Shown: in pieces, positions 10,120 to 33,939 of the stretch
Layout: every line of letters starts with the position of its first letter
Position numbering within the stretch: the first letter of the stretch is position 1
NCBI GenBank assembly: GCA_027083925.1
Contig: JALWMK010000033.1
Location: 211-64,210, forward strand
Direction: 5' to 3'
Source: Sedimenticola sp.
Lineage (GTDB): Bacteria; Pseudomonadota; Gammaproteobacteria; Chromatiales; Chromatiaceae
Length of the DNA stretch: 64,000 nucleotides
Program-made: the position numbers and the translations under genes
The notes under the pieces: generated by a model
Database searches by the model: none
What the model saw: the letters and a program-made list of their open reading frames with translations, nothing else
Told to the model about the DNA's origin: nothing

Positions 10120-10248
10120 TCAATGCAATAACCAGTAACCGACAATGTAACCGATAACCACCAGATTAATGATGCCGCCGATAATAGCCATGCCGTCTAA
10201 AAGGCTGGGCCGCCATTTTTGCCTTGTGGCCACTGTTGCTGACTTCAT
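10120..10248 (-). CDS. 42-aa single-pass membrane ORF (not in supplied track)
   Basis: My own translation: MKSATVATRQKWRPSLLDGMAIIGGIINLVVIGYIVGYWLLH. It starts 7 nt after the cupredoxin stop, has a weak SD, and is followed by the hairpin. Confidence 0.3.
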   Translation of the reverse strand: MKSATVATRQKWRPSLLDGMAIIGGIINLVVIGYIVGYWLLH

Positions 10249-10254
10249 GCCGGC

Positions 10255-10995
10255 TTACTTGAAAGTGAAGTCAACGGTTGCAGTGCCGCCGGTATCCACG
10301 GTCACTTTGGCTTTCTGGTTCTTCAACATGCCATGCCAGGCTTTGATGGTGTATTTACCCGGAGGAACATCTTTGATGGTGAAGCTGCCATCATCCGCAA
10401 CTTTGGCAAAGTACGGGTTTTTGGCAATGAAAACGAATCCGTGCATGAAGTCGTGGGCATCACATTCCACTTTCATGGCGGGTCCCTTCTTGACCTTGAT
10501 TGTGGATTTCACTACGCCGGGCTTGGGCTGACTGATATTTGTCAGGGTTTTTTTCGGCCCCTTGGCATCGCCGCGTATCAGTTCATAGGTGTGAATGTTA
10601 TGCAGGATGGGATCATCGTTTACGGCAGAAAGAACTGCCTTGTTTTTCATCACCTGGAGAAAGGGTTTGAACTCGCAGCCTTTCTGATCAATGGTGGCGT
10701 CGCCTACATCAGTAGGGAAGGGCTTGCCTTCCTTGACCTTCTCCAGATAAACCACAGCATCCATCAGGTGGCCGTTTTCCACCCGTACAAAGTCGATCTC
10801 GCGCACTCCGGTGCCACATACGTCGTTGTCCTTGGAAATGGTATATGTCTTTGGTGGCCGATCCTTGCCTGCAAATTTCACGCTGCCGGTAATGGTTCCG
10901 CCGTTGGAAACGCCGGTCTCCTTGTAGGCTGCCTGACTCGCCAGGGGCAAGGCGCAAAGACCGGCAATGCTGAGGGTAACGAGTGCTTTTTTCAT
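10255..10995 (-). CDS. secreted cupredoxin-like (type-1 copper) protein with CarboxypepD_reg-like beta-sandwich
   Basis: 246-aa ORF with a signal peptide (…LPLASQAAY). Candidate Cu ligands are LHNIH plus C-DA-H-DF-M, the same C-x2-H-x2-M loop spacing as amicyanin CTPHPFM. C-terminal DGSFTIKDVPPGKYTIKAWH. Confidence 0.7.
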   Translation of the reverse strand: MKKALVTLSIAGLCALPLASQAAYKETGVSNGGTITGSVKFAGKDRPPKTYTISKDNDVCGTGVREIDFVRVENGHLMDAVVYLEKVKEGKPFPTDVGDATIDQKGCEFKPFLQVMKNKAVLSAVNDDPILHNIHTYELIRGDAKGPKKTLTNISQPKPGVVKSTIKVKKGPAMKVECDAHDFMHGFVFIAKNPYFAKVADDGSFTIKDVPPGKYTIKAWHGMLKNQKAKVTVDTGGTATVDFTFK

Positions 10996-11018
10996 GGTGC
11001 TGTCTCCTGGGTATGGTT

Positions 11019-13415
11019 TCAGGCTGCCTGTTCAGGGTTGTCCTGTGCAGTCAGCAGTTCTTCTATCATTTCAATATATACGCTGCGTTTGACGCTGTCG
11101 TCGGCCTGCTTGAGGTTTGCCAGCAATATGCTGTTGGCAAGGTCGGTATCGAATTGACGCAGCGCACGGCCAATCAGCCTCGCTTCTTCTCCGGTGCCTA
11201 TGGTAACGCCATCGATAATCTTTTCGACTGCTTTGCGGGTAAATGATTCCTCCTGCAAAGGCTCCAGCAGCCTCGCCAGGCCCTTGGCTGCAGTGACGCG
11301 CACACCCATTTCACTGTCTTCCAGGCATTCCATGAGCCTGCGGGCAATGCTCAGGGCTGGGACATCACGTATAACCATGTGATCCGCCTTGAGCGGATCC
11401 TGACTGTTGAGAGATAGATGCACCAGGGCATCAATAGCCTGGATGCGCAGGGTGAATTCCGGGGCTTTCAGTGTTTCCACCAATGGAACCAGGGCGGCCC
11501 GGTTGCCGATATGGCTCAGTGCTCTGGCGCTGGCAATTTTCTGATCCAGATCGCCAATGGCCAATTGGGTGATCAGGGTGCCGACGGCGTCGGACAAACC
11601 GGCAAGCAGCGGGTTGCGCTGCGCCATGATGCCGATGGACTCTGCTGCTTCCCGGCGTACCGGGGCGGCATCGTCATTGAGCGCCTGGATCAGGGTTTGC
11701 AGTACCTCTGCCTCGTCGATATCTGCAAGCACATGCGCCGCCAGCCGGCGTATATCCTGCTGCGCATCGATTTTGCGGTTGGAGCGCATGCGTCGCATAA
11801 GTTCCTTGTTGTCTTCAACGATTTCCATGTATTCCAAAGTGGCTTCGTCCTGGATATCCTCTACCGGATGCGGGGTGGCAAGCATGGTTTCCACATTTGC
11901 CATGCTGATTGCATCCAGGGTGGACATGGCGGGTGCGACTTCGCCTTCGGCGACGATTTGGGCGGGTGTTTCTGGTAGATCGAGGTCAGTTTCTGCCGGT
12001 GTTGATGCTTCTGGCAGGTTTTCCTCGCTATCGTGCAAATCTTCCGCGCCTTCGATGCTGGTGTCCAGGGTCACTTCCACGGGAGCGGCGGCGGCCGGTG
12101 GCTCCGGAACGGTGATTTCCCCGTTCAATGCACCCATGATCAGATCCAGAGGCCGGGACAATGGCGCCTCTTTGTCATCCGGCTGTAAAATCAGGCCGGT
12201 TTTTTCCAGCTCCATCAAGGCTGCCAGGGCTGCCAGACGCACCACTTGCTGTTCATCCGTAATGGCCTTTTCCAGCGTACCGAGTACTTGTGCATCGATC
12301 TGCCCCAGGCTGCCAATGGCAGTGGCAGCCTCTTTTCGCACCATGGGATGGACGCTGCTGTCGGCTACTATCTCCAGCAGGTGCGTGATGGCGGATATGT
12401 TCCCGTTGGCCCCGAGGAGGGCGCAGGCAGCAGCAGCCGTTTCGGCAGCAGTATCGCGAATGTGATCGAGCACGACTTGAAAATTCGCTGCCGACAGTGG
12501 GTTGTCGGCAACAACCGGCAACAGCATGGAGTACAGGATGGCACGCACCTCAGGGTCGGGGTCAGCCAGCATGTCCTGGAATGCTTCTTCGATGTGCGGT
12601 GTATTGTCACTGTTTTGCGCCAGTCGGGTAACGGCCTTGAGCGATGCCTGGCGTACCTGGTTGTCTGGGTCGCGCAACAGCAGGGTCAGGGCGCTGAGGT
12701 AGGAAATGGCATTTTGTTTGGAAAGGGACAAGGCAGCTTCTGCACGCACGTCGGCGGCGGGATCCGTCAGCGCACGCCCCAAGGCTCTGGTGGCCTCGCT
12801 GGAGGGGGAGCGCGCCAACGCATGGGCTGCCCTGCGCCGGTGAATGGGGGTACTGTCCTGGTTCTGCAGCCGCTCGATGACCCGGGCTTCGCCATTGCTG
12901 GATATCCGGATCAGGGTATTGAGAATATCGGGTTCCATGTCCTGCTGGGTTTCATCACCAATAAGAGCAGCGAGGCGATCAACCGCTTTTTCCGCCTGTA
13001 GTGTTCCCAGCGCGTGAACAGCGGCCTTCTGCACATCCCACCAGGTGTCCCAGTCGTCGTCCCATTCCATGTTTTCCGGGCGCTCCAGGCAGATTTTCAG
13101 CAGGGGATCGATGGTATCGGGGTCTCCGATCTTGCCGAGCGCAACAGCCACCATGGTACACACCTCGCCACTGGGGTCATTCTCCAGGGATTCGATCAAC
13201 GCTGGCACCGCTTTTGGCGAACCAATATTTCCCAATGCCTCTGCGGCATCGATGGCAACGTCCAGATCCTCATCCCTGAGATGCTCAATCAGGGTTTCAA
13301 TGGGTGCCGCATCTCCCAGCAGGCCCAAGGCGCGGGCTGCATAGCAGCGATCTGCTTCATCACCAGTTTGAACAAGCTGGCACAAGGTGTCCACGGTTTC
13401 TCTGTATGTTGTCAT
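11019..13415 (-). CDS. cytoplasmic HEAT-repeat (PBS-lyase-type) protein with acidic central linker
   Basis: 798-aa ORF. Many repeats of the D..VR..AA.ALG..G pattern, no signal peptide, and an acidic, low-complexity middle region. Confidence 0.8.
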   Translation of the reverse strand: MTTYRETVDTLCQLVQTGDEADRCYAARALGLLGDAAPIETLIEHLRDEDLDVAIDAAEALGNIGSPKAVPALIESLENDPSGEVCTMVAVALGKIGDPDTIDPLLKICLERPENMEWDDDWDTWWDVQKAAVHALGTLQAEKAVDRLAALIGDETQQDMEPDILNTLIRISSNGEARVIERLQNQDSTPIHRRRAAHALARSPSSEATRALGRALTDPAADVRAEAALSLSKQNAISYLSALTLLLRDPDNQVRQASLKAVTRLAQNSDNTPHIEEAFQDMLADPDPEVRAILYSMLLPVVADNPLSAANFQVVLDHIRDTAAETAAAACALLGANGNISAITHLLEIVADSSVHPMVRKEAATAIGSLGQIDAQVLGTLEKAITDEQQVVRLAALAALMELEKTGLILQPDDKEAPLSRPLDLIMGALNGEITVPEPPAAAAPVEVTLDTSIEGAEDLHDSEENLPEASTPAETDLDLPETPAQIVAEGEVAPAMSTLDAISMANVETMLATPHPVEDIQDEATLEYMEIVEDNKELMRRMRSNRKIDAQQDIRRLAAHVLADIDEAEVLQTLIQALNDDAAPVRREAAESIGIMAQRNPLLAGLSDAVGTLITQLAIGDLDQKIASARALSHIGNRAALVPLVETLKAPEFTLRIQAIDALVHLSLNSQDPLKADHMVIRDVPALSIARRLMECLEDSEMGVRVTAAKGLARLLEPLQEESFTRKAVEKIIDGVTIGTGEEARLIGRALRQFDTDLANSILLANLKQADDSVKRSVYIEMIEELLTAQDNPEQAA

Positions 13416-13799: not shown

Positions 13800-13815
13800 T
13801 GGCTTGGTTTTTGCT
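13800..13815 (+). promoter_or_regulatory. candidate sigma-54 (-24/-12) promoter for the cydA-like operon
   Basis: TGGCTTGGTTTTTGCT. GG-N10-GC spacing is kept and 10 of 12 specified consensus positions match. It lies ~60 nt upstream of the ATG at 13875. Confidence 0.45.
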
Positions 13816-14201: not shown

Positions 14202-16103
14202 ATGAAGCAAACAGAATCTATACATACGATCGGCGGCCGTTTGGCGGCGATGCTGTTTTCGCTACTGGTGTTGCTGCTCTTTGGCATGGCGGCTGTGGCC
14301 CAGGCTGATGCCGGCATGGGTGGTACCCAGGAACGTATTGCGCCAATTGGCGAAGTGCGCCTGGCGGGGCAGCCGCCAGTTGAGGTGTCTGCAGAACCTG
14401 CCGCCATCCAGGAGCAGGAGACGCAGCTCAAGGCGGCGCCCCGGCCTGGCCGTTCCGATTATCCCAATGTCGGTGTCAGCAGCAGGGCCATCGTATGGGT
14501 TCTGGGCCAGATGCATCTGTTCTTTGGCGCGCTGGTACTGGCGGTACCCCTGTTTGTGCTGTTGATCGAACTGGTCGGGGTGTACACCCGTGATGACCGC
14601 TATGACGACATGGCGCATGAGTTCATGAAGATCAGCCTCACGGGTTTTTCCATAACCGCCATCTTTGGTGGGTCGCTGGCCCTGGCGCTGTTCCTGCTCT
14701 ATCCGGATCTGATGGGCTATTTGATGAATGTGTTTGGCGCCCAGTGGCTGGTATATGCGGGACTGTTCTTTTTTGAGAGTTTCTTTTTATACATTTACTA
14801 TTATGGGTGGAATGCGCTCCGTTATGGAAACCTGAAATGGGTGCATCTCACCCTGGGGCTGTTGTTGAATGCATCGGGCCTGACGATTATGGTGCTGGCC
14901 AATTCATGGGCGACTTTCATGATGGCGCCATCGGGAGTGAACGAGGTCGGTGCGGTTGTCGGCAATATCTGGGAGGTGATGAAAGGACCCTTGTGGAATC
15001 CCATCAACCTGCACCGTTTCATCGCAAACATTGCCTTTGGTGGTGCGGTGGTCGGCGCATACGCGGCGTTCAAGTTTCTCAGCGCCAAGGATCCGGTCAA
15101 GCGCGCCCATTATGACTGGATGGGTTATACCTCGAACTTCATCGCGATTCTGTCCTTCCTGCCGTTGCCTTTCGCGGGATATTGGCTGATGGCGGAGATC
15201 TATGCCTACTCGCAGCAGATGGGTATTACCGCCATGGGTGGTATTTTAGCCTGGCTGTTTATCGTGCAGGCGGTGCTTATCGGCACGATTTTGCTGGCGG
15301 GCAATTTCTACCTGTGGTCGGGGATGTCACGCACTGATGGTTCGGAACGCTACAAGGGGCTGATCAAGGTGATTGCCTTGGTGCTGGTGGTGAGCTTCCT
15401 GATCTGGGTAACGCCTCATACGCTGATCCTTTCCGCCTCGGAAATCTCTCTGCTGGGAGGGAGTCATCATCATATTCTCGGTCCTCTGGGCATCATGCCG
15501 GCAAAGAATATTGCGGTGAATCTGATGCTGATCGCAACTTTCCTTTCTTTCCAGCTCTATCGTCGTTCCGACAAGGTGGCCACGGTGCGCTGGGCGCCCA
15601 TGGGGAATGCGTTGATGGTTGCTGTGTATGTAGGTGCCGTGGTGAATATCATTTTCCTCGGCGTTTACTACGGCTACTTTACCAATACCGTGTACAAGGT
15701 GGGTTCTTCCGTTGCTCAGGTGGTTACCACCCTGGTGGTGATCGTTTTCGGGCTGGTTATCGATTCCCTGATGTTCAAGAAAGCCAAGGTTCTGCCGTCT
15801 CATTGGGGGCGCATTCCTGATCGTGCGCAGTATGCGTTGTTTGCGCTGCCTATTGCCTTTACCTGGCTTATGGCGCTGATGGGCTATGTGCGCTCTTCGG
15901 TAAAGACGCACTGGCATGTTTATACCGTAATGAAGGACAACTCGCCGGATAACTTCATTCCCACCATTGGCTATGCAGGAAACATGATCACCCTGGTGAC
16001 GGTGTTGTTCCTGCTGTGCGTACTGTTCATGTTCTGGGTGGCGAACCTGAGCGGCAGTAAACAGCCGAAGCCTGGCGCTGTCGCAGCCGGAGGTGAGGCA
16101 TGA
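14202..16103 (+). CDS. CydA-like membrane protein (cytochrome bd oxidase subunit I superfamily), no CydB partner
   Basis: 633-aa polytopic ORF. Segments align by eye to E. coli CydA: GQMHLFFGALVL (His19 region), GLFFFESFFLYIYYYGW (FFLESTF...FFFGW), LANSWATFMMAP (ANGWMQNP) and NLHRFIANIAFGG (His186 region). There is an extra N-terminal helix. The GRQPW signature is not recognisable (GYVRSSVKTHW). Confidence 0.8.
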   Translation: MKQTESIHTIGGRLAAMLFSLLVLLLFGMAAVAQADAGMGGTQERIAPIGEVRLAGQPPVEVSAEPAAIQEQETQLKAAPRPGRSDYPNVGVSSRAIVWVLGQMHLFFGALVLAVPLFVLLIELVGVYTRDDRYDDMAHEFMKISLTGFSITAIFGGSLALALFLLYPDLMGYLMNVFGAQWLVYAGLFFFESFFLYIYYYGWNALRYGNLKWVHLTLGLLLNASGLTIMVLANSWATFMMAPSGVNEVGAVVGNIWEVMKGPLWNPINLHRFIANIAFGGAVVGAYAAFKFLSAKDPVKRAHYDWMGYTSNFIAILSFLPLPFAGYWLMAEIYAYSQQMGITAMGGILAWLFIVQAVLIGTILLAGNFYLWSGMSRTDGSERYKGLIKVIALVLVVSFLIWVTPHTLILSASEISLLGGSHHHILGPLGIMPAKNIAVNLMLIATFLSFQLYRRSDKVATVRWAPMGNALMVAVYVGAVVNIIFLGVYYGYFTNTVYKVGSSVAQVVTTLVVIVFGLVIDSLMFKKAKVLPSHWGRIPDRAQYALFALPIAFTWLMALMGYVRSSVKTHWHVYTVMKDNSPDNFIPTIGYAGNMITLVTVLFLLCVLFMFWVANLSGSKQPKPGAVAAGGEA

Positions 16104-16933
16104 GCGTACTGTTAAAGACATTGGGCTTCAGCCTGGGACTGACCCTGCTCTTTACCTTGGTAACCTACCTGCTTCCCCAGGTAAAGGGTGAGGCCCCGGT
16201 GGAAAAGGCGGTGGATCTGGGTTCCCTGACCATGGAAAGCTTCATTGCCCTGGGGGACGAAATCTTCCACAACAAGGGTACCTGTACCCTGTGCCACCAG
16301 CCCGCACCCTTGGGACGAGCGCCGGATATTGGGGGAGAAGACATGGTAGCGCTTGCCAACAAGCATCTGGCCGATGAACGTTACCAGGGAGATGCAAAGA
16401 ATGCCGAGGAATATATCCGGGAATCCCTGCTTCATCCTGGCAAATATGTTGTCGCCGGTTGGGGGAAAAAAGGCAGCAACGATACCGAGTCTCCAATGCC
16501 TATGGTGGACAAGCCCCCCATACAGCTTACGCCGATAGAGATCGATGCCGTGATCGCCTGGTTGGAGGCAAAGGATGGTGGCGAGGTTACCGTGACTCTG
16601 CCCACAGCGGAAGCGGCAGCGGAAGTGGCTTCGGCAGCAACTGCCGACGACAGCGGCAAAGCTCCTGTCCTGGCGACAACAGCGGTAGAAGCACTTGCCA
16701 AATACGCCTGTACTTCCTGCCATGCAATGGACAGTAATGACGTCTTGGTTGGCCCGGGGTTGGTGGATATCGGCTCCCGCCTGAGCAAGGAAGAGCTGCG
16801 GCAAAGCATTGTTGAGCCGAATGCGGTGGTGGCTGAGGGCTTCCCGCCTGCCATGCCGCCTGATTTTGCATCCAAGATGACAGTGAGTGAGCTGGAGATG
16901 ATTGTCAACTATCTGGCGGAGAAGAAAGGATGA
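16100..16933 (+). CDS. membrane-anchored dihaem c-type cytochrome
   Basis: 277-aa ORF with an N-terminal hydrophobic anchor and two CXXCH motifs (CTLCH, CTSCH). ATGA overlap with the cydA-like stop. Confidence 0.85.
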   Translation: MSVLLKTLGFSLGLTLLFTLVTYLLPQVKGEAPVEKAVDLGSLTMESFIALGDEIFHNKGTCTLCHQPAPLGRAPDIGGEDMVALANKHLADERYQGDAKNAEEYIRESLLHPGKYVVAGWGKKGSNDTESPMPMVDKPPIQLTPIEIDAVIAWLEAKDGGEVTVTLPTAEAAAEVASAATADDSGKAPVLATTAVEALAKYACTSCHAMDSNDVLVGPGLVDIGSRLSKEELRQSIVEPNAVVAEGFPPAMPPDFASKMTVSELEMIVNYLAEKKG

Positions 16934-19359
16934 AAGGTTTCCGGATTACCGCATTCTGGCAAGCTTTGATTGCCGCTGTACTGGCATGGCTGATTTTCGA
17001 TAACGCCTTTCCTCCGGTGCTGCCGAAGACCCTGATGATCCAGTACATGATCATCACCATTATCGGCATCCTTTTGTATTTTGCCTTTGATGACAAGAAA
17101 TGGTCTGAATTCAAGGCTCCCATCCTGGCCACCCTGCAGGATGATGACAAGGCGTTGTTGCGCGGGTTCTTTCTCATAGCCATTCCCTTGCTGGCGGCCT
17201 ATGTGACCTATGGCGTGGTCAAGCCGTCGCTTGAGGCGCCGGTGGAACTGCGCCAGGTACATCCCGCGCCCCCCTCCGCAGTCAGGGCATACAACAAGAC
17301 CTTTGATCTGGCAACACTGGAGAATCCGGTACGCCATGATATTCTGGATGCCCTGGCGAAGGACAAGGAAGCGGGCTGGAGCAAATACCATGAATCAGTA
17401 GCCGCAGGACGGGATGTCTACTACACAAACTGTTTCTATTGCCACGGTGATCTGCTGGATGGCAAGGGACAATATGCCCATGGCTTCAGCCCCCAGCCGA
17501 TCAATTTTCAGGATCCTACTGTCATCCCGCAATTGCAGGAATCTTTCCTGTTCTGGCGCATTGTTACTGGTGGCCCGGGGCTGCCGGTAGAAGGCACGCC
17601 CTGGAATTCCGCCATGCCCGTATGGCATGAAATGCTGGAAGAGAACGATGTCTGGAATGTGATCAATTTTATCTTTGATTACAACGGGCAAGTGCCGCGC
17701 ATCTGGGACCCCGAAATTTCCAGAACCGTAACCGGCATGAAAGATGAAGTGCTGGCTCGCCGCAAGAACATCATGGGCAAGGAGTTGTACCAATTTCGCT
17801 GTGAGGTCTGCCATGGTGAGAACGGTGTCGGTGATGGCGTAGCGGCAGAGTTCATGTACCCCAAGCCCCGTGATTTCAGTCTGGGTCTGTTTAAGTACAA
17901 AAGCTCTCCGGGCACCCAGTTACCCCGGGATGAGGATCTGTTTAACACGATAAAAACCGGACTGCCCGGCACAGCTATGCCTGGCTGGGGTCTCAAGGGG
18001 CGCGCCCTGCTCACCGACGAGCAGATTCGCAGCCTGATCCCGGTGATCAAGGGCTTTGACATCACTATGGCCTGGCCGCCAGAGGATGCAGATGAGGAAG
18101 CCTTTGATGATGACGGTTTCTATACCAAAACGGATTTCCGGGTGATCACCGGGGTCGAGCCGATAACTGGGCAGATTGCCTATTCCGAAGAATCGGTGGA
18201 AAAAGGCAGGCTGGCGTTCCTAAAGTCCTGTTCCGAATGTCATGGTGATGATGGCAGGGGCAATATTCAGTCCGGGAAAAAGCTGGAGGATGACTGGGGT
18301 AACCGTATCTGGCCACGGAATCTGACCAAGCCCTGGACCTGGCGCGCTACCCAGTCACTGGCCGCCACCGATAAAGAGCGGGATGAGACCATCAAGGCGA
18401 TCTATGCCCGACTGTCCATCGGCATTCCCGGTACGCCCATGCCCGCGCATCGCGCCCTGGAAGAAGGCAACCCGGATCCGGTGCGCCTGGAAGACCGCTG
18501 GCATATCTCCAACTTCGTGTACAGCCTGCGGGAAACTGCAGTTCAGCCCCAGGATGCTCCTGTTGTCAGCAGCAAGAAGCTGGAGGCCGATCTGCCATCG
18601 ACTGTAGATGATGAGCGATGGGCTGAGGCGCCGCCGGTAACCCTGCACCTGGTTCCCAACGTGATCAAGGAGGATCGTTTGTTCACCCCGCTGAACGACG
18701 CAGTTACTGTGCGTGTGTTGTATAACGATGAGGAAATCGCCTTCCTGCTGGAGGTGGATGATCGCACCATGAGTGTGCCGGGAGATAAGTATTTTACTGA
18801 ACTGCAGGACGAGAATCTGGAAATGCACCCGGATGCATTCGCCATACAGTTTCCCCATGAAGATGCCTACACGTCTGCACCCATGGTAAGGAAGCCGCTG
18901 TACCGCCATGGTGATGCCAAGCATAAAACCACCATTTGGTACTGGAATGCGGGCAGCCTGGAACCGAAGAGAGACCCCGTTGCCATGCTGCTGGATGGCA
19001 CAGGCCCGGACAACAAACTCAAACCCCGGGAGAAAGAAGCCAGCCTCAGCGCCACCGGTGAGTGGCAGGGAGGGCGTTGGCAGGTGCTGATGAAACGTCC
19101 CAGATATGCCGCAAATGGTGATGTATTGTTCGATGAAGGGCAGTTTATTCCTGTATCATTTGCCAACTGGGACGGCAGCAACGGGGAGGCTGGAGGCAGA
19201 CATACCCTGACTACCTGGTACTGGCTGATACTGCCGCCGGAAACGAATGTACTGAAAGTGTATGGGGTGCCGGCTGGTATTGGATTTCTGGTGTTTCTTG
19301 CCGGAGTGCTGCTGGTGCGGTCACAGCGTAAGGAACAAATCAACCCAGCCACCAAATAG
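16930..19359 (+). CDS. trihaem c-type cytochrome fused to an EB_dh/DOMON-like (ethylbenzene dehydrogenase gamma-type haem b) domain, with N- and C-terminal membrane anchors
   Basis: 809-aa ORF. Three N-terminal hydrophobic helices and the motifs CFYCH, CEVCH and CSECH. The C-terminal ~200 aa fit the EB_dh pattern (DERWAEAPPVTL...DAFAIQFP...TIWYWNAG...GRWQVLMKRP...VSFANWDG). Terminal helix GIGFLVFLAGVLLV. ATGA overlap with the upstream gene. Confidence 0.75.
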   Translation: MKGFRITAFWQALIAAVLAWLIFDNAFPPVLPKTLMIQYMIITIIGILLYFAFDDKKWSEFKAPILATLQDDDKALLRGFFLIAIPLLAAYVTYGVVKPSLEAPVELRQVHPAPPSAVRAYNKTFDLATLENPVRHDILDALAKDKEAGWSKYHESVAAGRDVYYTNCFYCHGDLLDGKGQYAHGFSPQPINFQDPTVIPQLQESFLFWRIVTGGPGLPVEGTPWNSAMPVWHEMLEENDVWNVINFIFDYNGQVPRIWDPEISRTVTGMKDEVLARRKNIMGKELYQFRCEVCHGENGVGDGVAAEFMYPKPRDFSLGLFKYKSSPGTQLPRDEDLFNTIKTGLPGTAMPGWGLKGRALLTDEQIRSLIPVIKGFDITMAWPPEDADEEAFDDDGFYTKTDFRVITGVEPITGQIAYSEESVEKGRLAFLKSCSECHGDDGRGNIQSGKKLEDDWGNRIWPRNLTKPWTWRATQSLAATDKERDETIKAIYARLSIGIPGTPMPAHRALEEGNPDPVRLEDRWHISNFVYSLRETAVQPQDAPVVSSKKLEADLPSTVDDERWAEAPPVTLHLVPNVIKEDRLFTPLNDAVTVRVLYNDEEIAFLLEVDDRTMSVPGDKYFTELQDENLEMHPDAFAIQFPHEDAYTSAPMVRKPLYRHGDAKHKTTIWYWNAGSLEPKRDPVAMLLDGTGPDNKLKPREKEASLSATGEWQGGRWQVLMKRPRYAANGDVLFDEGQFIPVSFANWDGSNGEAGGRHTLTTWYWLILPPETNVLKVYGVPAGIGFLVFLAGVLLVRSQRKEQINPATK

Positions 19360-19437: not shown

Positions 19438-20034
19438 ATGATTTGCAAAACCGTATTGCTGGTTTTTTGGCTGCTGTGGATGCCCTTGTTGCAGGCTGAC
19501 AGCCAGCTTGGGGAGGATGCGGCAGTACCTGGAATTATCGAGGCGCCCCCCGGGGGCGACTTTCTCCTGCATACCAGCAAGGGGTCTTTTTCCCTGAAGG
19601 ACTATCGGGGCAAGGTGGTGTTGCTGTATTTCGGCTACACCAAATGTCCGGATGTTTGCCCGACCTCTCTTTCCTATTTGGCACAGGCGTTCAATGAGCT
19701 CAATGATGACGAGCTGAAAAAGGTCGTTGGTGTTTTTGTCAGTGTTGACCCCAAAAGGGATACCTTTGAGTTGCTGGATGAATATGTGCAATACTTTCAT
19801 CCCAATTTCATTGGTGTCACCGGCAGTGAAAAAGAGCTTTCTGCTGCTGCAGCGCTGTATGGCGCCCAATACTATGAAGTAGAGCTAGAAGACTCGGCCT
19901 TTGGCTATGCGGTCAATCACTCTGCCGCCACCTACCTGATTGCACCGAACGGGGAGCTGCGCTTTATTTTTCCGCACGCTACATCGCCGATGGTGATCAG
20001 TGAGGCCATTCGTTATGTGATGGATGGGAATTAG
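19438..20034 (+). CDS. SCO1/SenC family copper chaperone (thioredoxin fold)
   Basis: 198-aa ORF with an N-terminal anchor, the CPDVCP (CxxxC) motif and a downstream conserved His (AVNHSAATYLI). Confidence 0.9.
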   Translation: MICKTVLLVFWLLWMPLLQADSQLGEDAAVPGIIEAPPGGDFLLHTSKGSFSLKDYRGKVVLLYFGYTKCPDVCPTSLSYLAQAFNELNDDELKKVVGVFVSVDPKRDTFELLDEYVQYFHPNFIGVTGSEKELSAAAALYGAQYYEVELEDSAFGYAVNHSAATYLIAPNGELRFIFPHATSPMVISEAIRYVMDGN

Positions 20035-20068
20035 TCCCGAGATCTACCCACAACTGATGGGCGCAGAG

Positions 20069-20135
20069 GGCGCAAGCTCTTGATCTTAATTATTTTCCTC
20101 ATTCTGCGTCGGCGCTTGGCGCAAGCTCTTGATCT
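20069..20135. repeat. two direct copies of GGCGCAAGCTCTTGATCT, 49 nt apart
   Basis: Exact 18-mers at 20069-20086 and 20118-20135. A 15/16 match in inverted orientation (GATCAAGCGCTTGCGC) lies at 54519-54534. Confidence 0.8.
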
Positions 20136-20274: not shown

Positions 20275-20439
20275 CAACATTGAGCTAAAGCATGGTTTTG
20301 ACAGGCTTTGATGGAACTTTCTGAAACTGGTCTGTTTCGTGCATGGAGTTAGCCAGGCTGTCGGCTGCTTTTGAGTTTTGGTTGTTGCAACCAAGCCCTT
20401 TACTGTCGGCAAATTAACAATAGACCTGGAGGAAATCCA

Positions 20440-21546
20440 ATGGTTGTAAGAGTCTCAACGGGGCGCGCTTTACTGGCCGCCACACTGGGGGTCGGAATGG
20501 CAGTAACAGCGCAAGCTGCCAGCTATCCGGATATCGGACCCTTACCGCAGTTAAAAGTCGACAAGGCAAAAGCCGAGCTGGGCAAGCGCCTGTTCTTTGA
20601 TGTGCGCTTGTCGGGTGATGCTGGCATCTCCTGTGCCGATTGTCATGTGCCAGAAAAGGCGTATGCCAGCAAGGAGGCACTGTCTCCGGGCTACCCTGGA
20701 AACGGGCATTTTCGCAATGCCTCTTCCTTGGTGAATACGGCCCACAAGAACATCTGGAACTGGGATGGCCGTATCGGCACCAACCTCAATGACATGACCC
20801 GTGAGATGATCACGGAAGACTACATCATGAACATGGACATGCGTATCATGCAGGAGCGCTTGAAGCAGGATCCTCTGTACGTCAAGATGTTCAAGGACGC
20901 AGGTTATGGTGAGCCTTCCAATGGCTCTGTGCGCAAGGCGATTCCCGAATATCTGAAAACCCTCACTTCTACCGGCTCCCCGTTTGACAAGGGCACAATG
21001 TCTGCTTCTGCAAAACGTGGCATGAAATTGTTCAAGGGCAAGGCGGGCTGTATTCAGTGCCACAATGGCCCCTTGCTAAGCGATCTGAAGCCCCACAATA
21101 CTGGTGTTCCGGAGAATTTCGATGTATTCCTGGATCCGATGAATCACCAGGCCTTCATGGCCTTTACCATGTTCCAGGGTGTGCCAGACTACAGGAATCT
21201 GAAGCGAGATCCGGGATACTTCAATGTGACCCTGGAGAAGCAGGACATGGGCAAGTTCATCACCCCATCCCTGCGGGAACTCAAGTACAGTGCTCCGTAC
21301 ATGCACAATGGCATGATCAAAACCCTGTCCGAAGTGGTCGGGTTCTACAATGCTGGTGGAGGGAAGGATCGCAACAAGAGCAAGAAGCTCAAGCCTCTTG
21401 GTCTGAGCGCCAATGAACAGAAAGATCTGGTGGCGTTTCTAGAGGCTCTTTCCGGTGATCCGCTGACCAGCCCCAAATACGTATGGGATCAGCCCTATCC
21501 GGCAGAGTATCCTGTAATCGAAAATTGGACGCAGGTCCGTAACTAA
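20440..21546 (+). CDS. dihaem cytochrome c peroxidase (CCP/MauG family; IdrP-like by context)
   Basis: SD GGAGGA then ATG at 20440 and a signal peptide (…AVTAQAASY). Motifs CADCH and CIQCH, plus the PYMHNG Met-ligand region. The longer track ORF from 20371 lacks a plausible start context. Confidence 0.9.
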   Translation: MVVRVSTGRALLAATLGVGMAVTAQAASYPDIGPLPQLKVDKAKAELGKRLFFDVRLSGDAGISCADCHVPEKAYASKEALSPGYPGNGHFRNASSLVNTAHKNIWNWDGRIGTNLNDMTREMITEDYIMNMDMRIMQERLKQDPLYVKMFKDAGYGEPSNGSVRKAIPEYLKTLTSTGSPFDKGTMSASAKRGMKLFKGKAGCIQCHNGPLLSDLKPHNTGVPENFDVFLDPMNHQAFMAFTMFQGVPDYRNLKRDPGYFNVTLEKQDMGKFITPSLRELKYSAPYMHNGMIKTLSEVVGFYNAGGGKDRNKSKKLKPLGLSANEQKDLVAFLEALSGDPLTSPKYVWDQPYPAEYPVIENWTQVRN

Positions 21547-21561
21547 TTCGAGGAGAATGTC

Positions 21562-22788
21562 ATGAGTATAAAGAAAATCGCTCCTACCCTCGTTGCGGTT
21601 GCCGTTGCGACTGTACTGACAGCCTGTCAGGCGCAGGAGACCAAAACGGGAAGCGCTGTATCCGGAAAATCCATGGCTGCCAAGACCGCGCAATCCGGCC
21701 CGCCGCCGCTGGCTCCCCTGGGTGCGCCGCCGATACCGCCGGACAACAAACAGACGCCTGCCAAGATCGAACTGGGCAAGATACTGTTTTTTGATCCCCG
21801 TCTTGGCGGTGATGCCTCTACCGGCTGTTCCACCTGCCATGAGCCTGACCAGGGTTGGGCGTGGGCGGAAGATTTTTCCCGCGGTTATCCTGGTACGGTT
21901 CACTGGCGCAACAGCCAGACCATCATCAACAGCGCTTATTATGCGCGTAACTTCTGGGCAGGTTCTGTGCCTTCGCTGGAGAAACAAGCGCCTTCCGCCG
22001 CCAAGGGAGGTGTAGCCGGTAACGGTGAAAACGATATCATGGAATCCCGCCTGGCGCTGATTCCCGGATACCGCAAGCGCTTCAAAGAAGTGTTTGGCAC
22101 TGAATGGCCGTTGATCGGCGACGCCTGGAGAGCCATTGCCGCATTCGAGCGCACCCTGGTGCAACGGGATACCCCGCTGGACAAGTACCTGCTGGGCGAC
22201 AAGAACGCCCTGACCGAACAACAGGTGCAGGGCATGGCGTTATTCAACGGCAAGGCAGGCTGTATCCAGTGCCACAATGGCGAACTGGCTTCGGATCAGG
22301 ACTATTACAACATAGGTGTTCCACCGAACAAACGCTGGGAAGAAGATGGTCTGGCTCAGGTTACCTTCCGCTTTGAGCTTTATGCCAAAGGAATGACCGA
22401 AGAAGGGTATCGAACCACCAAGGCCGATCCTGGCTTCTATTTCCGCGGCAAAAACACATGGGACAAAGGCAAGTTCCGTACTCCATCGCTGCGCTATACG
22501 GCATTCACCGCGCCCTATATGCATAACGGGATCTTCTACACTATGGAAGATGTGGTGGATTTCTACAATCGCGGCGGCTTCGATGAAGATGGCCGTACCA
22601 CTGCCTTTGCCGAAAACAAATCCAAATTGATCAAACCCCTTGGTTTGACGGATGAAGAGAAAGAGAATCTGGTAGCGTTCCTGGAAGCCTTCTCTGGTGA
22701 GGAAATGCTGATGGAGAAGCCGGCAATGCCGGAATATGCGCCTCTGTTCACCAGGGCTGAACTGGAAGCTGCACAGGAGGAAAAATAA
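21562..22788 (+). CDS. dihaem cytochrome c peroxidase, lipoprotein-type signal (second CCP; IdrP-like by context)
   Basis: 408-aa ORF with SD AGGAG, a lipobox LTAC, the motifs CSTCH and CIQCH, and PYMHNG. Confidence 0.9.
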   Translation: MSIKKIAPTLVAVAVATVLTACQAQETKTGSAVSGKSMAAKTAQSGPPPLAPLGAPPIPPDNKQTPAKIELGKILFFDPRLGGDASTGCSTCHEPDQGWAWAEDFSRGYPGTVHWRNSQTIINSAYYARNFWAGSVPSLEKQAPSAAKGGVAGNGENDIMESRLALIPGYRKRFKEVFGTEWPLIGDAWRAIAAFERTLVQRDTPLDKYLLGDKNALTEQQVQGMALFNGKAGCIQCHNGELASDQDYYNIGVPPNKRWEEDGLAQVTFRFELYAKGMTEEGYRTTKADPGFYFRGKNTWDKGKFRTPSLRYTAFTAPYMHNGIFYTMEDVVDFYNRGGFDEDGRTTAFAENKSKLIKPLGLTDEEKENLVAFLEAFSGEEMLMEKPAMPEYAPLFTRAELEAAQEEK

Positions 22789-23363
22789 TGAGCGATACAA
22801 AGAAAAAAGATGAAACAGCGGCTGACCATGGTCGATGCATGTTGAATCGCCGGCAGTTTCTGATGTACTCAGGTACTACGGCTGTAGCTGCCAGCACCAT
22901 ATCTATCAGCCTTTTCCCGGGTGAGGCTCAGGCCAAGGCGCGGGTGGTAACTTATCCGCGCATGAAGGTCGCTCGCCTGAGTGAGCTAAAAGATAACCAG
23001 CCAGTGGATTTCAACTATCCTGACGATGGCCCCAACTCCCAATGCTTCGTCGTAAAGATGGACGGCGCCAAGGCTGGTGGTGGTGTTGGTTCCCAGCGTG
23101 ATGTGGTGGCATTCAGCTACCTTTGTACGCACCAGGGTGGTCCGATGAATGGTAAATATCAGGCCGTGGGCGAGCACCGTGTGCTGGGGCAGTGCCCCTT
23201 GCACTTGTCCACCTATGATTTGACCCGCCACGGGATTATCGTGTCCGGGCAGGCTTACCAGAGTATCCCTCAGGTATTACTGGAGGTCGATGGCGATGAT
23301 ATATACGCCGTTGGCATTATGGGGCTGTTGTTCGGCCGTAACGAAAACCTGATGGATACCTAG
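22788..23363 (+). CDS. Rieske [2Fe-2S] small subunit of AioB/IdrB family, Tat-exported
   Basis: 191-aa ORF with the twin-arginine motif NRRQFLMY and the Rieske motifs CTHQGG and CPLH. TAATG overlap with the upstream CCP. Confidence 0.85.
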   Translation: MSDTKKKDETAADHGRCMLNRRQFLMYSGTTAVAASTISISLFPGEAQAKARVVTYPRMKVARLSELKDNQPVDFNYPDDGPNSQCFVVKMDGAKAGGGVGSQRDVVAFSYLCTHQGGPMNGKYQAVGEHRVLGQCPLHLSTYDLTRHGIIVSGQAYQSIPQVLLEVDGDDIYAVGIMGLLFGRNENLMDT

Positions 23364-23377
23364 GGAGGATATATAAG

Positions 23378-26071
23378 ATGTCTATACTCGATTATGTTCC
23401 AGAAGATAAAACCCCATTGCCTCCCAAGAATGCGGAAGTGCTGACGACTTGCTGCGACTACTGCATCGTTGCCTGTGGCTACAAGATCTACCGCTGGCCA
23501 GCGAATGCAAAAGATGGTGGCCCCAAGGCTTCGCAAAATGCCTTTGGTGTGGACTTTCCCGCCGGCCCCATGCAGGCCTGGGTGGCGCCCACACAGCACA
23601 ATGTGGTAATGCATAACGGCAAGCCGCATAAGGTGGTTATCGTTCCTGACAAGGAATCCAGGGTGGTCAACATTGGCGGCGACTCCTCCATTCGCGGCGG
23701 CACCATCGCCGAGAAGTGCTATAACCCCAAGAAACCCACCAGAGATCGTCTCATGTCACCCATGATTCGCATCAATGGTACTTTGCAGCCGGTGCCCTGG
23801 GATACCGCCCTGGATGTGGCCGCAGAGTTGATCAAGCATACGGTCAAGGTTCATGGGGCCAATGCCTACGGGATGAAGATGTTTTCCTATCAGTTCGTGG
23901 AGAACACCTATGCTCTTTCCAAGTTTTCCCGGGGTGGTATCAATACCGCGAACTTTACATTCCATGATACCCCGGCCAATGTGACTTCTACGCCCGGTTT
24001 TCGGGATGCAGGGTTTGATAATTTTGGTCCGGCATACAAAGATTGGGGCGATGCGGAAGTGCTGATGATCTGCGGTACCGACCCGTATGAAACCAAGACC
24101 ATGATCTTCAACCAGTTCATCAAACCGGCCATTGATCAGGGGCAGAAGACCATCTGGCTGAACGTGCGGGAAACCGCCGGTCTGGCCTATGCCAAGAGCA
24201 GGGGAAATGCCCTGTTCATCCAGGTTGATCCCGGTACGGATGTTCCCGTCCTGGGTGCTATCGCCCGGGTCATTCTCGAAAATGGCTGGGAAGACTCCGA
24301 CTGGATCAAAAAGTGGGTCAACAACAAGTGGGAGTCCAGTTCCGGCTTCGGCCAGGGCACCCGTAACACGCCTTGGCAGTGGCGTACCACCTGGGGCAAG
24401 TTCCAGACCAACGGTATTAAAGGCTACAAGGAGTGGAACCTCGCCCAGAAGGAATATGATCCCAAGGAAGCCGCCAGGATCGCCAACATTCCTGTTGAGC
24501 AGATCTATCAGGCAGCAGAGTGGATGGCCAAACCCAAGGCAGATGGCACCCGCCCGAAAACTTCTCTGGGTATCGAGAAGGGTTTCTACTGGGCCAACAA
24601 TACCGGTAATACGAATGCAGTGAGTTCACTGGCTACTATTTGCGGTGCAGGCGGGCGTCCTGGAAAGGTGGTTGGTCGTTTTGGCGGGCATCAACGTGGC
24701 GGCACCGGTGGTGCTGGGTTTCCTCGCAACAAATCCCCACAGAAACGTCCCGGCCGCCGCCGCCAGGCCATGGATTGTGACCGCTATTTCTATTCCGGTT
24801 ACACCCGGTTTGCCCATGTGGTCGGCACCACCTGGATTCAGGCCATGTGCGGATCCCAGGGCTTGAACAACAAGTTCGAGGAACTGGTTACCAACAACCC
24901 CAACCAGGTGCGCTCCTCCAACAAGCAGGCCATTATCGACACGCTGAAGAAGCGCATGGATTCTGGTGGCACGGTGGTGCTCAACCAGGATATTTACCTG
25001 CGTGACCCCATTGGCTCGAAGTTTGCCGACATCGTGCTGCCAGCAGCAACCTGGGGTGAGGAGGACTTTGTACGGGCCAACGGCGAGCGCCGCATCCGCC
25101 TGTATTCCAAGTTCTATGATGCGCCGGGTGATGCCAAGCCGGATTGGTGGATTGTTGCGCAACTGGCGCATCGCATGGGCTTCGATGGCTATGACTGGAA
25201 AAACTCCAATGAAGTCTGCGAAGAGTCTTCCCGTTTCAGCCGCGGTAACCGCAAGGCCTACCACATGATCAAGGTGGCGGCTCACAAGGAGGGCAAGACC
25301 CTGCATGAGAAGCTGCGCGAGATGGGCACTGAAGGTATCCAGGGGCCGACTTTCTACAACTACAAGACTGGTGAGTTGATGGGTAGTGTGCGCTTGCACG
25401 ATACCGAGATGAGGCCGGAAATGATGGAAGCACAAGGTCGCACCCAGGGTGCGAATATGGTCAATAAGAAAATGAGCCATTTCAATTCCCAAACCGGCAA
25501 GATCAACATCCAGAAGCATCCCTGGAGCCTGTTCTCCGATTACTGGGAGTGGATGAGTCCGAAGAAAGACGAGTTGTGGCATACCAACGGCCGCATCAAT
25601 GAAGTCTGGCAATCCGGTTTTGATGATGTGGATCGCCGTGCCTACATCGCCCAACGCTGGCCGGAAAACTGGACGGAGATTCATCCTGACGATGCCGCCG
25701 CGCGGGGTATCGAATCCGGAGACAAGATCCTGCTGTACACTGATCGTGTGCCGGTTTTCCGCCAGACCATCAAGGGTGTGCATGGGTCAGACTTCAACTT
25801 TGCTGAGTTGCTGAAGAATGGCTGGATCGAGCTGAACAAGGCTGCTGTGGAAGCAGTAGCTATTGTCACGCCCCATGTGAAGAAGGGAACCATGTATTCC
25901 TACTTCCTCAATACCAGCCAGCCTTCCAACGTCCTGCAGGGTCGTGTGCCTGACCAGATCAGTGGAAACTACAACTACAAGATGGGGGTTTCCCGAGTCA
26001 AGAAAATCGGGGAATCCAAGTATAAGCATGAGTTTACGCACATGTCTTTTGCACCACGCAATGTAGTATAG
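23378..26071 (+). CDS. molybdopterin (DMSO reductase family) large subunit of AioA/IdrA clade (arsenite-oxidase-like; context favours iodate reductase)
   Basis: 897-aa ORF with a strong SD GGGAGGA. N-terminal C-x2-C-x3-C (CDYCIVAC), as in the AioA [3Fe-4S] site. Collinear by eye with AioA (…VVIVPDKESRVVN…). Confidence 0.85.
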   Translation: MSILDYVPEDKTPLPPKNAEVLTTCCDYCIVACGYKIYRWPANAKDGGPKASQNAFGVDFPAGPMQAWVAPTQHNVVMHNGKPHKVVIVPDKESRVVNIGGDSSIRGGTIAEKCYNPKKPTRDRLMSPMIRINGTLQPVPWDTALDVAAELIKHTVKVHGANAYGMKMFSYQFVENTYALSKFSRGGINTANFTFHDTPANVTSTPGFRDAGFDNFGPAYKDWGDAEVLMICGTDPYETKTMIFNQFIKPAIDQGQKTIWLNVRETAGLAYAKSRGNALFIQVDPGTDVPVLGAIARVILENGWEDSDWIKKWVNNKWESSSGFGQGTRNTPWQWRTTWGKFQTNGIKGYKEWNLAQKEYDPKEAARIANIPVEQIYQAAEWMAKPKADGTRPKTSLGIEKGFYWANNTGNTNAVSSLATICGAGGRPGKVVGRFGGHQRGGTGGAGFPRNKSPQKRPGRRRQAMDCDRYFYSGYTRFAHVVGTTWIQAMCGSQGLNNKFEELVTNNPNQVRSSNKQAIIDTLKKRMDSGGTVVLNQDIYLRDPIGSKFADIVLPAATWGEEDFVRANGERRIRLYSKFYDAPGDAKPDWWIVAQLAHRMGFDGYDWKNSNEVCEESSRFSRGNRKAYHMIKVAAHKEGKTLHEKLREMGTEGIQGPTFYNYKTGELMGSVRLHDTEMRPEMMEAQGRTQGANMVNKKMSHFNSQTGKINIQKHPWSLFSDYWEWMSPKKDELWHTNGRINEVWQSGFDDVDRRAYIAQRWPENWTEIHPDDAAARGIESGDKILLYTDRVPVFRQTIKGVHGSDFNFAELLKNGWIELNKAAVEAVAIVTPHVKKGTMYSYFLNTSQPSNVLQGRVPDQISGNYNYKMGVSRVKKIGESKYKHEFTHMSFAPRNVV

Positions 26072-26093
26072 GTTTCCGTTAACCGGAGACAGA

Positions 26094-26121
26094 GGGGTGG
26101 CCATTGGCCGCCCCTTTTTTT
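26094..26121 (+). terminator. rho-independent terminator
   Basis: GGGGTGGCC-ATT-GGCCGCCCC stem followed by a T7 run, 23 nt after the large-subunit stop. Confidence 0.75.
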
Positions 26122-26229
26122 ACCCTGTTACTGTTCGTCTTAGTAAGGGCCTATAAAAAGGCGTAAATAGTTTCAGTGGGCTGACTGCTGGGGCGGTGCA
26201 TGCTATGGTAAAACCTGATTTTCCTTGCT

Positions 26230-30022: not shown

Positions 30023-31651
<1,629 letters not shown>

Positions 31652-32982: not shown

Positions 32983-33939
32983 TCAGGGGTTTCCTGTCGG
33001 TGCTGTGCCTTTGGCGGCCCGTTGCTCCTGCATCTGGCGCACGGTTTCACGCTGCTCTTTCTGTTTCGCTGTAAGCGCAATGGCATCGAGATAGGGCACG
33101 ACGCCCTGGGCGCGTATGATCTCCCGGCCTTTTCTGGAAAGCGCAAAGGAGATAAAACGCTTGATTTCCTTCAACTGTGGGTTGTCACGCGTCATGTAGG
33201 TGACATAGAGGGGCCGGTAAAGCAGGTAATGTCCGGACTTGATGTTTTCGTAATCCGGTGTTTTTCCTTCCAGGGCAAGGAGTTTGACATCACGTTTTCT
33301 GGCGCTGGAAATGCCGGAAATCCCGATGGCGTTGGGGTTTTCCGCTACGGCTTTCTCCAGTGGACCAGACGATGGGTATTCCGCTGATCCCCTGAATTCC
33401 TGATCAGGGTTTCCCCATACAAGTTGCCTGAGGGTGCTGCCTACTCCGGATATTTTTCCCTTGCGAACCAGGAGTTCTACGGGGGCGTTGTTTCCTCCCA
33501 GTTCTTTCCAGTTGCTTATCTTGCCCTCGTACAGATCCTTCACCTGTTTCAGGCTGATGTTGGATGCCGGATTGTCCTTGTGTACCATTACCACAAGGGC
33601 ATCCCAGGCGACCGGGGTCATGCGCACGAAACGTTCTTCTGCGGCGCCTGCAATTTTTGGCCTGCATGCGCCTCCAATATTGACGCTACGATCCTTTACC
33701 CGCCGGATGCCTTTGGTTGCTCCTCCTCCTTCCAGGATAAAGTGCACACCATAGATTTTTTCATATTCAAGGGCCAACTCTTTCATGAAGGCCTTTTTGG
33801 TGATGCCGCAGCCTGCCCAGCGCAAGGTGCGTGAGTCATTGTTGATATTCGGGAGCGGGTCTGTCTGATTTTCAGCGGCTTGAACTCCGGTAATGGTTAA
33901 CAGGAATCCGAGCACAATGATCAGGTTGTTTTTCACCAA
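32983..33939 (-). CDS. periplasmic substrate-binding protein, PstS/PBP-like fold (orphan)
   Basis: 318-aa ORF with a signal peptide and GGGATKGI...GGACRP motifs of the phosphate-binding-protein-like family. No transporter genes are adjacent. Confidence 0.6.
   Translation of the reverse strand: MVKNNLIIVLGFLLTITGVQAAENQTDPLPNINNDSRTLRWAGCGITKKAFMKELALEYEKIYGVHFILEGGGATKGIRRVKDRSVNIGGACRPKIAGAAEERFVRMTPVAWDALVVMVHKDNPASNISLKQVKDLYEGKISNWKELGGNNAPVELLVRKGKISGVGSTLRQLVWGNPDQEFRGSAEYPSSGPLEKAVAENPNAIGISGISSARKRDVKLLALEGKTPDYENIKSGHYLLYRPLYVTYMTRDNPQLKEIKRFISFALSRKGREIIRAQGVVPYLDAIALTAKQKEQRETVRQMQEQRAAKGTAPTGNP

Follow-up and report, generated by a model that had tools for sequence, protein, structure and literature searches.

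The window analysed here is a 64,000-nucleotide stretch of Sedimenticola sp. DNA (assembly GCA_027083925.1, contig JALWMK010000033.1), and its most prominent feature is a tightly chained operon at positions 20440-26071 of the plus strand, encoding two di-haem peroxidases, a Rieske subunit whose signal is of the twin-arginine translocation (Tat) type and an 897-residue molybdoenzyme. Judged by homology, gene order and phylogeny, this operon is most likely idrP2-idrP1-idrB-idrA, i.e. a periplasmic iodate reductase of the "marine" clade of Idr proteins in a Sox-carrying Sedimenticola; by its sequence, the large subunit is not an arsenite oxidase. An earlier note on this DNA had likewise favoured an iodate reductase over a canonical arsenite oxidase locus, and the tree, the sequence motifs and the orthology of the peroxidases and IdrB with those of Azonexus all speak for that choice.

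The coordinates, strands and open reading frame (ORF) lengths given in that note were found to be correct (Table 1), as were the intergenic gaps of 15 and 14 nt and the TAATG junction at 22788, which is a stop/start overlap (22786-22790) between the second peroxidase gene and idrB. A Shine-Dalgarno sequence is present at each junction. The mechanically called ORF of the first gene begins at a TTG at 20371, but the ATG at 20440 is preceded by a GGAGGA Shine-Dalgarno sequence, and both are invariant across nine aligned relatives. At the end of the operon, the RNA fold of 26072-26130 has an energy of -31.7 kcal/mol (z -6.2; none of 200 shuffled sequences folds as well) and includes a second short hairpin besides the terminator stem. 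The G+C content of the operon (0.53-0.55) is near that of its surroundings. Rfam and tRNA scans of the window gave no match, and hence neither a molybdenum cofactor (Moco) riboswitch nor a tRNA-flanked island.

Table 1. Features of the idr operon, its upstream region, the regulatory genes and the bd-like module (window positions)
Feature	Position	Strand	Remarks
Sigma54-dependent response regulator	17-1426	-	AtoC-like by NCBIfam
PAS sensor kinase	1398-4001	-	AtoS-like by NCBIfam
798-aa HEAT-repeat protein	11019-13415	-	Pfam HEAT_2, 2.8e-59
Sigma54-like promoter of the bd-like module	13800-13815		Conserved; two small membrane ORFs precede the module
Cytochrome bd subunit-I-like membrane protein	14202-16103	+	633 aa; Pfam Cyt_bd_oxida_I, 64 bits
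Di-haem cytochrome c	16100-16933	+	Pfam/NCBIfam
Tri-haem cytochrome c with EB_dh (type II DMSO-reductase gamma-like) haem-b domain	16930-19359	+	
SCO1/SenC (copper chaperone)	19438-20034	+	Pfam/NCBIfam
Palindrome TTGATTTGGCTCAA	20261-20274	+	Possible CRP/FNR-type box or upstream activator site
Sigma54-type -24/-12 element TGGTCTGTTTCGTGCA	20328-20343	+	Precedes the first ATG by about 100 nt
Di-haem cytochrome c peroxidase-like gene 1 (probable idrP2 orthologue)	20440-21546	+	368 aa, counted from the ATG
Di-haem cytochrome c peroxidase-like gene 2 (probable idrP1 orthologue)	21562-22788	+	408 aa
idrB, Tat-exported Rieske [2Fe-2S] small subunit	22788-23363	+	191 aa
idrA, molybdenum-bis(pyranopterin guanine dinucleotide) (Mo-bisPGD) catalytic subunit	23378-26071	+	897 aa; N-terminal [3Fe-4S] domain
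Intrinsic terminator at the operon end	26091-26124	+	12-bp GC-rich stem, then U7

Both peroxidases match the Pfam domain CCP_MauG (1.5e-33 for the first, 9.9e-39 for the second) and carry the two CxxCH motifs of a di-haem protein (CADCH65 and CIQCH204 in the first, CSTCH89 and CIQCH234 in the second). The nearest solved structure to the first is the di-haem enzyme 6e1c (E 2.5e-28), and the nearest to the second are the bacterial cytochrome c peroxidases (CCPs) 4aal and 3hq6 (E 4e-42). Read by eye, the first has a Sec-type signal (...TAQA/AS), and the second a lipoprotein-type signal with lipobox LTAC22, so that it is probably lipid-anchored. The small subunit IdrB has a Pfam Rieske match, an RR motif (NRRQFL) and the Rieske motif CTH-x20-CPLH. 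In the closest AioB chain of the PDB (8r3a_B), the cluster ligands are flanked by disulfide cysteines, which IdrB does not have.

These three proteins are one-to-one orthologues of idr gene products of Azonexus hydrophilus NCP973, one of five isolated iodate respirers (PMC13455634), and the genes are in identical order. The first peroxidase is 47% identical to the first Azonexus CCP (311 bits, versus 251 bits to the second), the second is 56% identical to the second CCP (372 bits, versus 222 bits to the first), and IdrB shares 54% identity with Azonexus IdrB versus 39% with AioB of strain NT-26. Wherever the upstream DNA of a related locus was long enough, the order peroxidase-peroxidase-IdrB-IdrA (P-P-B-A) was found, as it was in Azonexus. 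The earlier note had written the set as idrP1P2BA; the gene set stands, but the order of the peroxidase genes is probably the reverse. The accessions of IdrA, IdrB, IdrP1 and IdrP2 of Azoarcus DN11 run consecutively (DN11 paper), and if the gene order in DN11 is also P-P-B-A, the order of transcription would be idrP2-idrP1-idrB-idrA, with idrP2 starting at 20440 and idrP1 at 21562.

All four genes are shared with the idrABP1P2 clusters of the iodate-respiring isolates Pseudomonas sp. SCT, Denitromonas iodatirespirans IR-12, Azoarcus sp. DN11 and Azonexus NCP973, and so are a CX2CX3CX70S motif in the large subunit, a Rieske protein with a Tat signal and two CxxCH motifs per peroxidase. In Azonexus the cluster lies on a 319-kb plasmid, where genes for a sensor kinase and a sigma54 regulator are joined by those for two CCPs, both enzyme subunits (small and large), a cytochrome c and MoaA. 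The two organisms have in common a promoter of the sigma54 type and a pair of kinase and sigma54 activator. The window differs from the isolate clusters in that the regulators lie 16 kb away instead of adjacent, that no cytochrome c or moaA gene follows idrA, and that the Rieske motif has the spacing CxH-x20-CxxH, compared to x18 in DN11. As a side observation, the Azonexus cluster (plasmid NZ_CP151407.1, locus L084) is flanked by TnsA-like and IS21 transposase genes, and a plasmid of Thiothrix subterranea (L085) carries an idrA (76% identical) together with cytochrome c, moaA and tatA genes and the same kinase/sigma54 regulator pair.

The large subunit contains the Pfam domains Rieske_3 (3Fe-4S), Molybdopterin and Molydop_binding. 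Its cluster-binding residues C26-x2-C29-x3-C33, followed by Ser104, form the CX2CX3CX70S motif that has been reported for IdrA of Azoarcus DN11 (DN11 paper). No signal peptide could be recognized by eye, and the protein is presumably exported jointly with IdrB.

The earlier note expected an automated annotation to call this pair an arsenite oxidase, and the curated models do so, albeit narrowly: the large subunit scores 389.8 bits with NCBIfam TIGR02693 (cut-off 359.05) and the small subunit 119.9 bits with TIGR02694 (cut-off 95.65). No Idr-specific NCBIfam model was matched by the pair, and the named homologues returned by protein searches are all labelled arsenite oxidase, arsenate reductase (azurin) or generic molybdopterin oxidoreductase. 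The alternative is a canonical AioBA, as these equivalog models and public annotations have it. In subunit architecture the two enzymes are alike, AioBA of Alcaligenes faecalis (1G8K) and Pseudorhizobium banfieldiae NT-26 (4AAY) also consisting of a Rieske small subunit and a large subunit with a 3Fe-4S cluster and Mo-bisPGD. Among solved structures, the AioA proteins of NT-26 and A. faecalis come closest to IdrA (E about 5e-77); a PDB sequence search returned no Idr structure, and its matches up to E 1e-10 include neither Arx nor Arr chains. However, true AioA proteins score 1468-1500 bits with TIGR02693 (Thermus 1467.7, NT-26 1499.5), whereas the validated IdrA of Azonexus scores 425.6 and a SAR324-type protein (P0311) 448.3, much like the window protein. 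The arsenite-oxidase equivalog cut-off simply admits Idr proteins.

The residues of the active site also argue against arsenite oxidation. The four arsenite-site residues of A. faecalis AioA (His195, Glu203, Arg419 and His423; numbering checked on chains 8cgs and 1g8k) correspond to His196, Ser204, Arg434 and His438, so that three are kept, but the glutamate is replaced by serine. The surrounding AioA segment IHNRPAYNSE, invariant in the AioA core of the sequence set, reads FHDTPANVTS in the window protein. Furthermore, GGHQEGY of AioA is changed to GGHQRGG in the window, so that an Arg replaces the Glu beside the catalytic His. Almost all Idr-type proteins of the marine clade share this change, while Azonexus has GGHQCGG. 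The combination of (F/W)HDTP(S/A)(D/N)V(T/S)S and GGHQRGG occurs in about 300 members of the marine clade, those of the SAR324 and roseobacter types among them; at the loop position where most members of the clade have Ser-Asp, Ala-Asn or Ala-Asp is found in the Sedimenticolaceae branch. At 897 residues the protein is also longer than AioA (825-845 residues), and the note's statement that A. faecalis AioA is shorter agrees with the 825 residues in the PDB. The catalytic direction of the two enzymes is presumed to be opposite.

The gene context points in the same direction. Loci encoding AioBA do not contain the two peroxidase genes (Reyes-Umana et al. 2021), and neither aioXSR nor other arsenic genes could be identified in the flanks of the idr operon (compare the NT-26 locus). 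A PstS-like binding protein encoded at 32983-33939 stays below its own cut-off and is not AioX. The arsC gene at 31304-31651 encodes a true glutaredoxin-type ArsC (TIGR00014, 158.8 bits), but lies 5 kb away on the other strand and is unlinked. In both respects the arsenic genes are as the earlier note had described them.

A neighbour-joining tree (300 bootstraps) was built with one isolate-validated IdrA, that of Azonexus NCP973 (obtained by tblastn of the plasmid collection), and with AioA as the arsenic-enzyme reference. The window IdrA falls within a Sedimenticolaceae group (100%), inside a "marine" clade (100%) that also comprises proteins of Vibrio, Moritella, Thiomargarita, roseobacter-type bacteria, SAR324 and Zetaproteobacteria. 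This clade and one cluster of fragments are united with the Azonexus/Thiothrix clade at 95%. Next come intermediate clades, and the core of AioA proteins stands apart at 100%. Sequence identities of the window protein agree with this: 64-68% to proteins of SAR324, Roseovarius, Aliiroseovarius, Ruegeria and Thalassovita, 48% to Azonexus IdrA, whose isolate type forms the sister clade, and 30% to AioA of NT-26 and Thermus. The protein thus groups with validated IdrA and away from AioA, and it has lost Glu203; an origin within AioA with a complete arsenite site, which the earlier note would have taken as evidence to the contrary, was not observed. We consider the AioBA reading largely refuted and its remaining probability to be very small indeed.

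The distribution of close relatives fits the marine-clade assignment. The best genome match to IdrA is a metagenome-assembled genome (MAG) of Sedimenticola sp. (96% identity, with flanking genes alike on both sides), followed by other Sedimenticola, Candidatus Thiodiazotropha and tubeworm endosymbionts; the IdrA of a MAG classed as S. thiotaurini is 84% identical to that of the window. Relatives of IdrA are encoded by at least 578 candidate stretches of the species-representative genome collection. Protein searches seeded with the window IdrA, P0121 and P0304 returned marine-clade proteins only, and the beta-type IdrA of the isolates is missing from these returns because it is less than 50% identical. 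In a search of representatives at 50% identity, the entire marine clade is collapsed into one representative (P0121), the next full-length representatives having about 40% identity. As a separate observation, S. hydrogenitrophicus SB48 (L001/L019, JANIOA010000008) carries P-P-B-A twice in complete form, the two clusters lying on one contig at a distance of about 7 kb, with IdrA copies 82% and 79% identical to the window IdrA, a Crp/Fnr-family regulator gene after the first copy and a MerR regulator gene between the copies.

Iodate reduction by such clusters has been studied before, and in other organisms a Mo-dependent conversion of iodate to iodide and a need for idrA in growth on iodate have been demonstrated. 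In Denitromonas, idrA was deleted, and the Idr clade was defined by its peroxidase synteny, which separates idrA from aioA (Reyes-Umana et al. 2021). The predicted iodate reducers in that study include Sedimenticola thiotaurini and tubeworm endosymbionts, as well as Moritella dasanensis, Photobacterium proteolyticum, Vibrio sinaloensis and Endozoicomonas OPT23; four of these organism names are borne by loci in our set (L058, L048, L043 and L060), and loci with several of the listed names show 69-70% identity to the window and an identical synteny. More directly, when expressed in E. coli, the idr clusters of a SAR324 MAG and of an alphaproteobacterial one convert iodate to iodide (PMC13455634, 2026), and the marine alphaproteobacteria R. 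azorensis, N. marinus and A. sediminilitoris reduce iodate, the idr genes of R. azorensis being induced by 0.1 uM iodate (Kine et al. 2024, PMC11445184). The window protein forms one 100% clade with proteins of these marine types (Roseovarius azorensis and others, SAR324, alphaproteobacterial MAGs from oxygen-minimum zones (OMZs)) and shares with them the HDTP...S loop signature and GGHQRGG, although the host class differs (Gammaproteobacteria, Sedimenticolaceae, for the window).

Several points nevertheless weigh against the assignment as an iodate reductase of this clade, or limit its firmness. The window IdrA has only 48% identity to the isolate-validated beta-type IdrA, and its substrate loop FHDTPANVTS differs from WHDKCSATND in Azonexus. 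The tree is of the neighbour-joining and not of the maximum-likelihood type, and in the comparisons the tested proteins of R. azorensis and Arabian10_MAG_27 were represented by same-genus and same-phylum relatives from the cluster. The operon contains neither a cld-like gene nor one for a small soluble cytochrome c. The -24/-12 element in front of it falls below the 8/10 match threshold used below and rests mainly on positional conservation. Finally, in the literature searched, no experiment on any gammaproteobacterial member of the marine clade was found, and none on this organism.

The difference between the marine and the beta-type loop is the main reason to keep a second alternative, namely that the marine Idr-like clade has a role other or broader than dissimilatory iodate respiration, for example with a different halogen oxyanion or oxidant as the main substrate, or in non-respiratory detoxification of iodate or peroxide under low oxygen. 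Such a role would agree with the modest identity to the isolate enzymes, and with the finding that the aerobic roseobacters tested reduce iodate only under oxygen limitation, growth on iodate not having been shown (PMC11445184). The frequent linkage to a bd-like putative oxidase (see below) likewise hints at a micro-oxic, oxidant-handling context. Against it stand the formation of iodide from iodate in E. coli by clusters of this very type and the induction of the R. azorensis genes by iodate, and the alternative substrates are without any support. We regard this possibility as rather unlikely, although less so than arsenite oxidation.

If the operon does encode an iodate reductase, the following mechanism can be proposed by homology. 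The Tat signal of IdrB would bring the folded IdrAB heterodimer into the periplasm, where electrons from reduced c-type cytochromes would reach Mo-bisPGD via the Rieske [2Fe-2S] cluster in IdrB and the [3Fe-4S] cluster in IdrA. At this site iodate would be reduced to hypoiodous acid, with H2O2 also being formed in the model of Yamazaki. Removal of the H2O2 would fall to the pair of di-haem peroxidases, of which one is soluble and the other probably lipid-anchored, and hypoiodous acid would be converted to iodide by disproportionation or chemical reduction. Expression is probably driven from a sigma54-type promoter that is controlled by a sensor kinase and its sigma54 activator, the arrangement of the validated clusters from betaproteobacteria.

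An alignment of the 400-nt upstream regions of the window and eight relatives contains several conserved blocks, among which TGG-N9-TGC (20328-20342), with the -24/-12 spacing of sigma54 promoters, is invariant. At the equivalent position the Azonexus idr cluster has a textbook TGGCACAGTGACTGCA. Matches of at least 8/10 to the sigma54 consensus were found at -92 to -139 in 29 of the 87 idr loci, compared to 2.8% of random segments. Of about 21 close relatives, 17 have a palindrome TTGAT-N4-(A/G)TCAA (at most one mismatch) at -167 to -191, versus 3.2% of random 400-nt segments. An FNR-dependent promoter, suggested by the TTGAT-N4-ATCAA palindrome, was downgraded in view of the invariant TGG-N9-TGC and the sigma54 regulators; the palindrome may be an activator site. 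A scan for sigma70 promoters was uninformative (5 sites versus 9.6 expected), and also missed the terminator. More distally, the direct repeat GGCGCAAGCTCTTGATCT occurs twice within 20067-20127, about 40 nt apart, and is not conserved in the aligned relatives.

Orthologues of the response regulator and the sensor kinase encoded at 17-4001 (52-60% and 36-44% identity, respectively) are found beside idr in Vibrio, Photobacterium, Moritella, Motiliproteus, Marinomonas and others. In the loci L113-L117 and L126 they lie directly upstream of the bd-like module and idr, in the collinear order regulator-module-idr, and in Azonexus and DN11 a kinase/sigma54 regulator pair is located directly upstream of idr. 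From this association the pair at 17-4001 is a candidate iodate-responsive two-component system for idr.

The three genes immediately preceding the SCO1/SenC gene (Table 1) form a module of a cytochrome bd-like protein and two multi-haem cytochromes c. This module was found immediately upstream of idr in 22 of the 54 idr-seeded genome loci, 21 of which were counted by script and one (L019) by hand, as it had been scored on its second idr copy while the module lies upstream of the first. The loci with both span Sedimenticolaceae, Motiliproteus, Aestuariirhabdus, Piscirickettsiaceae and Thiotrichaceae. Conversely, when metagenomes were scanned with the bd-like gene alone, idr followed in 16 of the 39 loci that extended far enough. 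Other loci have the module but not idr, and in these it keeps as neighbours the Usp-PCP_red, radical-SAM-PCP_red and CarboxypepD_reg genes (5737-10995 in the window). Its occurrence elsewhere and its own promoter indicate that the linkage to idr is strong but not obligatory. Joint occurrence of idrA with a bd-like oxidase module is not mentioned in the literature searched.

Only the first four helices of CydA (residues ~11-226) align with the bd-like protein, with His and Glu conserved and no Q-loop region aligned. Cytochrome bd-like proteins of the OR-N type have been described as lacking the quinol site and occurring alongside alternative electron donors (Murali et al. 2021); the gene at 14202-16103 resembles them in its four-helix alignment and adjacent cytochrome c genes, a likeness drawn from their description rather than from subfamily alignments. 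The idea that the module is a dedicated quinol dehydrogenase was weakened by this same alignment, which covers only the helices of the O2 site, and by the work of Murali et al. (2021). In the bd-like protein, invariant His residues, among them an SHHH motif (H423), hint, along with the SCO1 gene nearby, at a copper site.

HEAT-repeat homologues of the protein encoded at 11019-13415 adjoin idr in Vibrio (L042), L029, L062, L069 and L078, and adjoin the bd-like module in L088-L099; in Vibrio such a protein accompanies the orthologues of the regulator and kinase. Tentatively, marine-clade iodate reduction may belong to a wider unit under sigma54 control, together with the kinase/activator pair, the HEAT-repeat protein and, in about 40% of the lineages, the bd-like module, a proposal that we put forward as possible but doubtful. 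If it is true, the bd-like module would supply the membrane step that is missing from published idr models, either as the point of electron entry to periplasmic IdrAB/IdrP or as an oxidase consuming released oxygen species.

Some further genes around the module deserve mention. The minus-strand region 4330-13415 encodes a HemY-like protoporphyrinogen oxidase, two proteins with PCP_red repeats (one of the radical-SAM/SPASM type, the other a Usp protein with four such repeats), a protein with a CarboxypepD_reg domain and the 798-residue HEAT-repeat protein. The Usp-PCP_red, radical-SAM-PCP_red and CarboxypepD_reg genes accompany the bd-like module even in the idr-less loci L138 and L102, and this joint occurrence suggests a dedicated set for cofactor maturation. 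More distant bd-like modules (57-60% identity) were found in metagenome loci L134-L154, where the whole three-gene module is tandem-duplicated; in L139, idrA lies just upstream of the duplicated pair.

About 32 kb downstream of idr, on the minus strand, the window encodes SoxB (58329-60095, 884 bits) and SoxA (61398-62252, 223 bits). By homology these two proteins confirm a Sox thiosulfate-oxidation system, and thereby the earlier description of the host as a Sox-type sulfur oxidiser. A SoxH-like metallohydrolase is encoded at 43162-44325. In addition, an EgtB/SenA-like sulfoxide-synthase homologue (52469-53800, minus strand) that stays under the curated cut-offs and a separate methyltransferase (44909-45673, minus strand) with weak similarity to the C-terminal part of OvoA could be identified; this pair may be involved in thiol- or seleno-histidine biosynthesis.

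The earlier note put forward iodate respiration in a sulfur oxidiser as a point of special interest. The iodate reductase reading is supported, but the ecological point is not new: the idr system and its occurrence in Sedimenticola and beside sulfur-oxidation genes are already published, as Sedimenticola is among the predicted iodate reducers of Reyes-Umana et al. (2021), and idr co-occurs with the sulfur-oxidation genes dsr, apr, sat and sox in OMZ MAGs (PMC13455634). The present locus adds one further Sedimenticola genome to the published list, and the core finding changes little. The regulatory and the bd-like associations, which are correlative, are the only potentially new elements.

Since the arsenite-oxidase cut-offs admit Idr proteins and homologues carry arsenic-type labels, surveys of the arsenic cycle may over-count, and surveys of the iodine cycle under-count, the genes concerned. 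The sigma54 two-component pair and the bd-like/cytochrome c module are candidates for iodate sensing and for the handling of electrons or oxygen species at the membrane.

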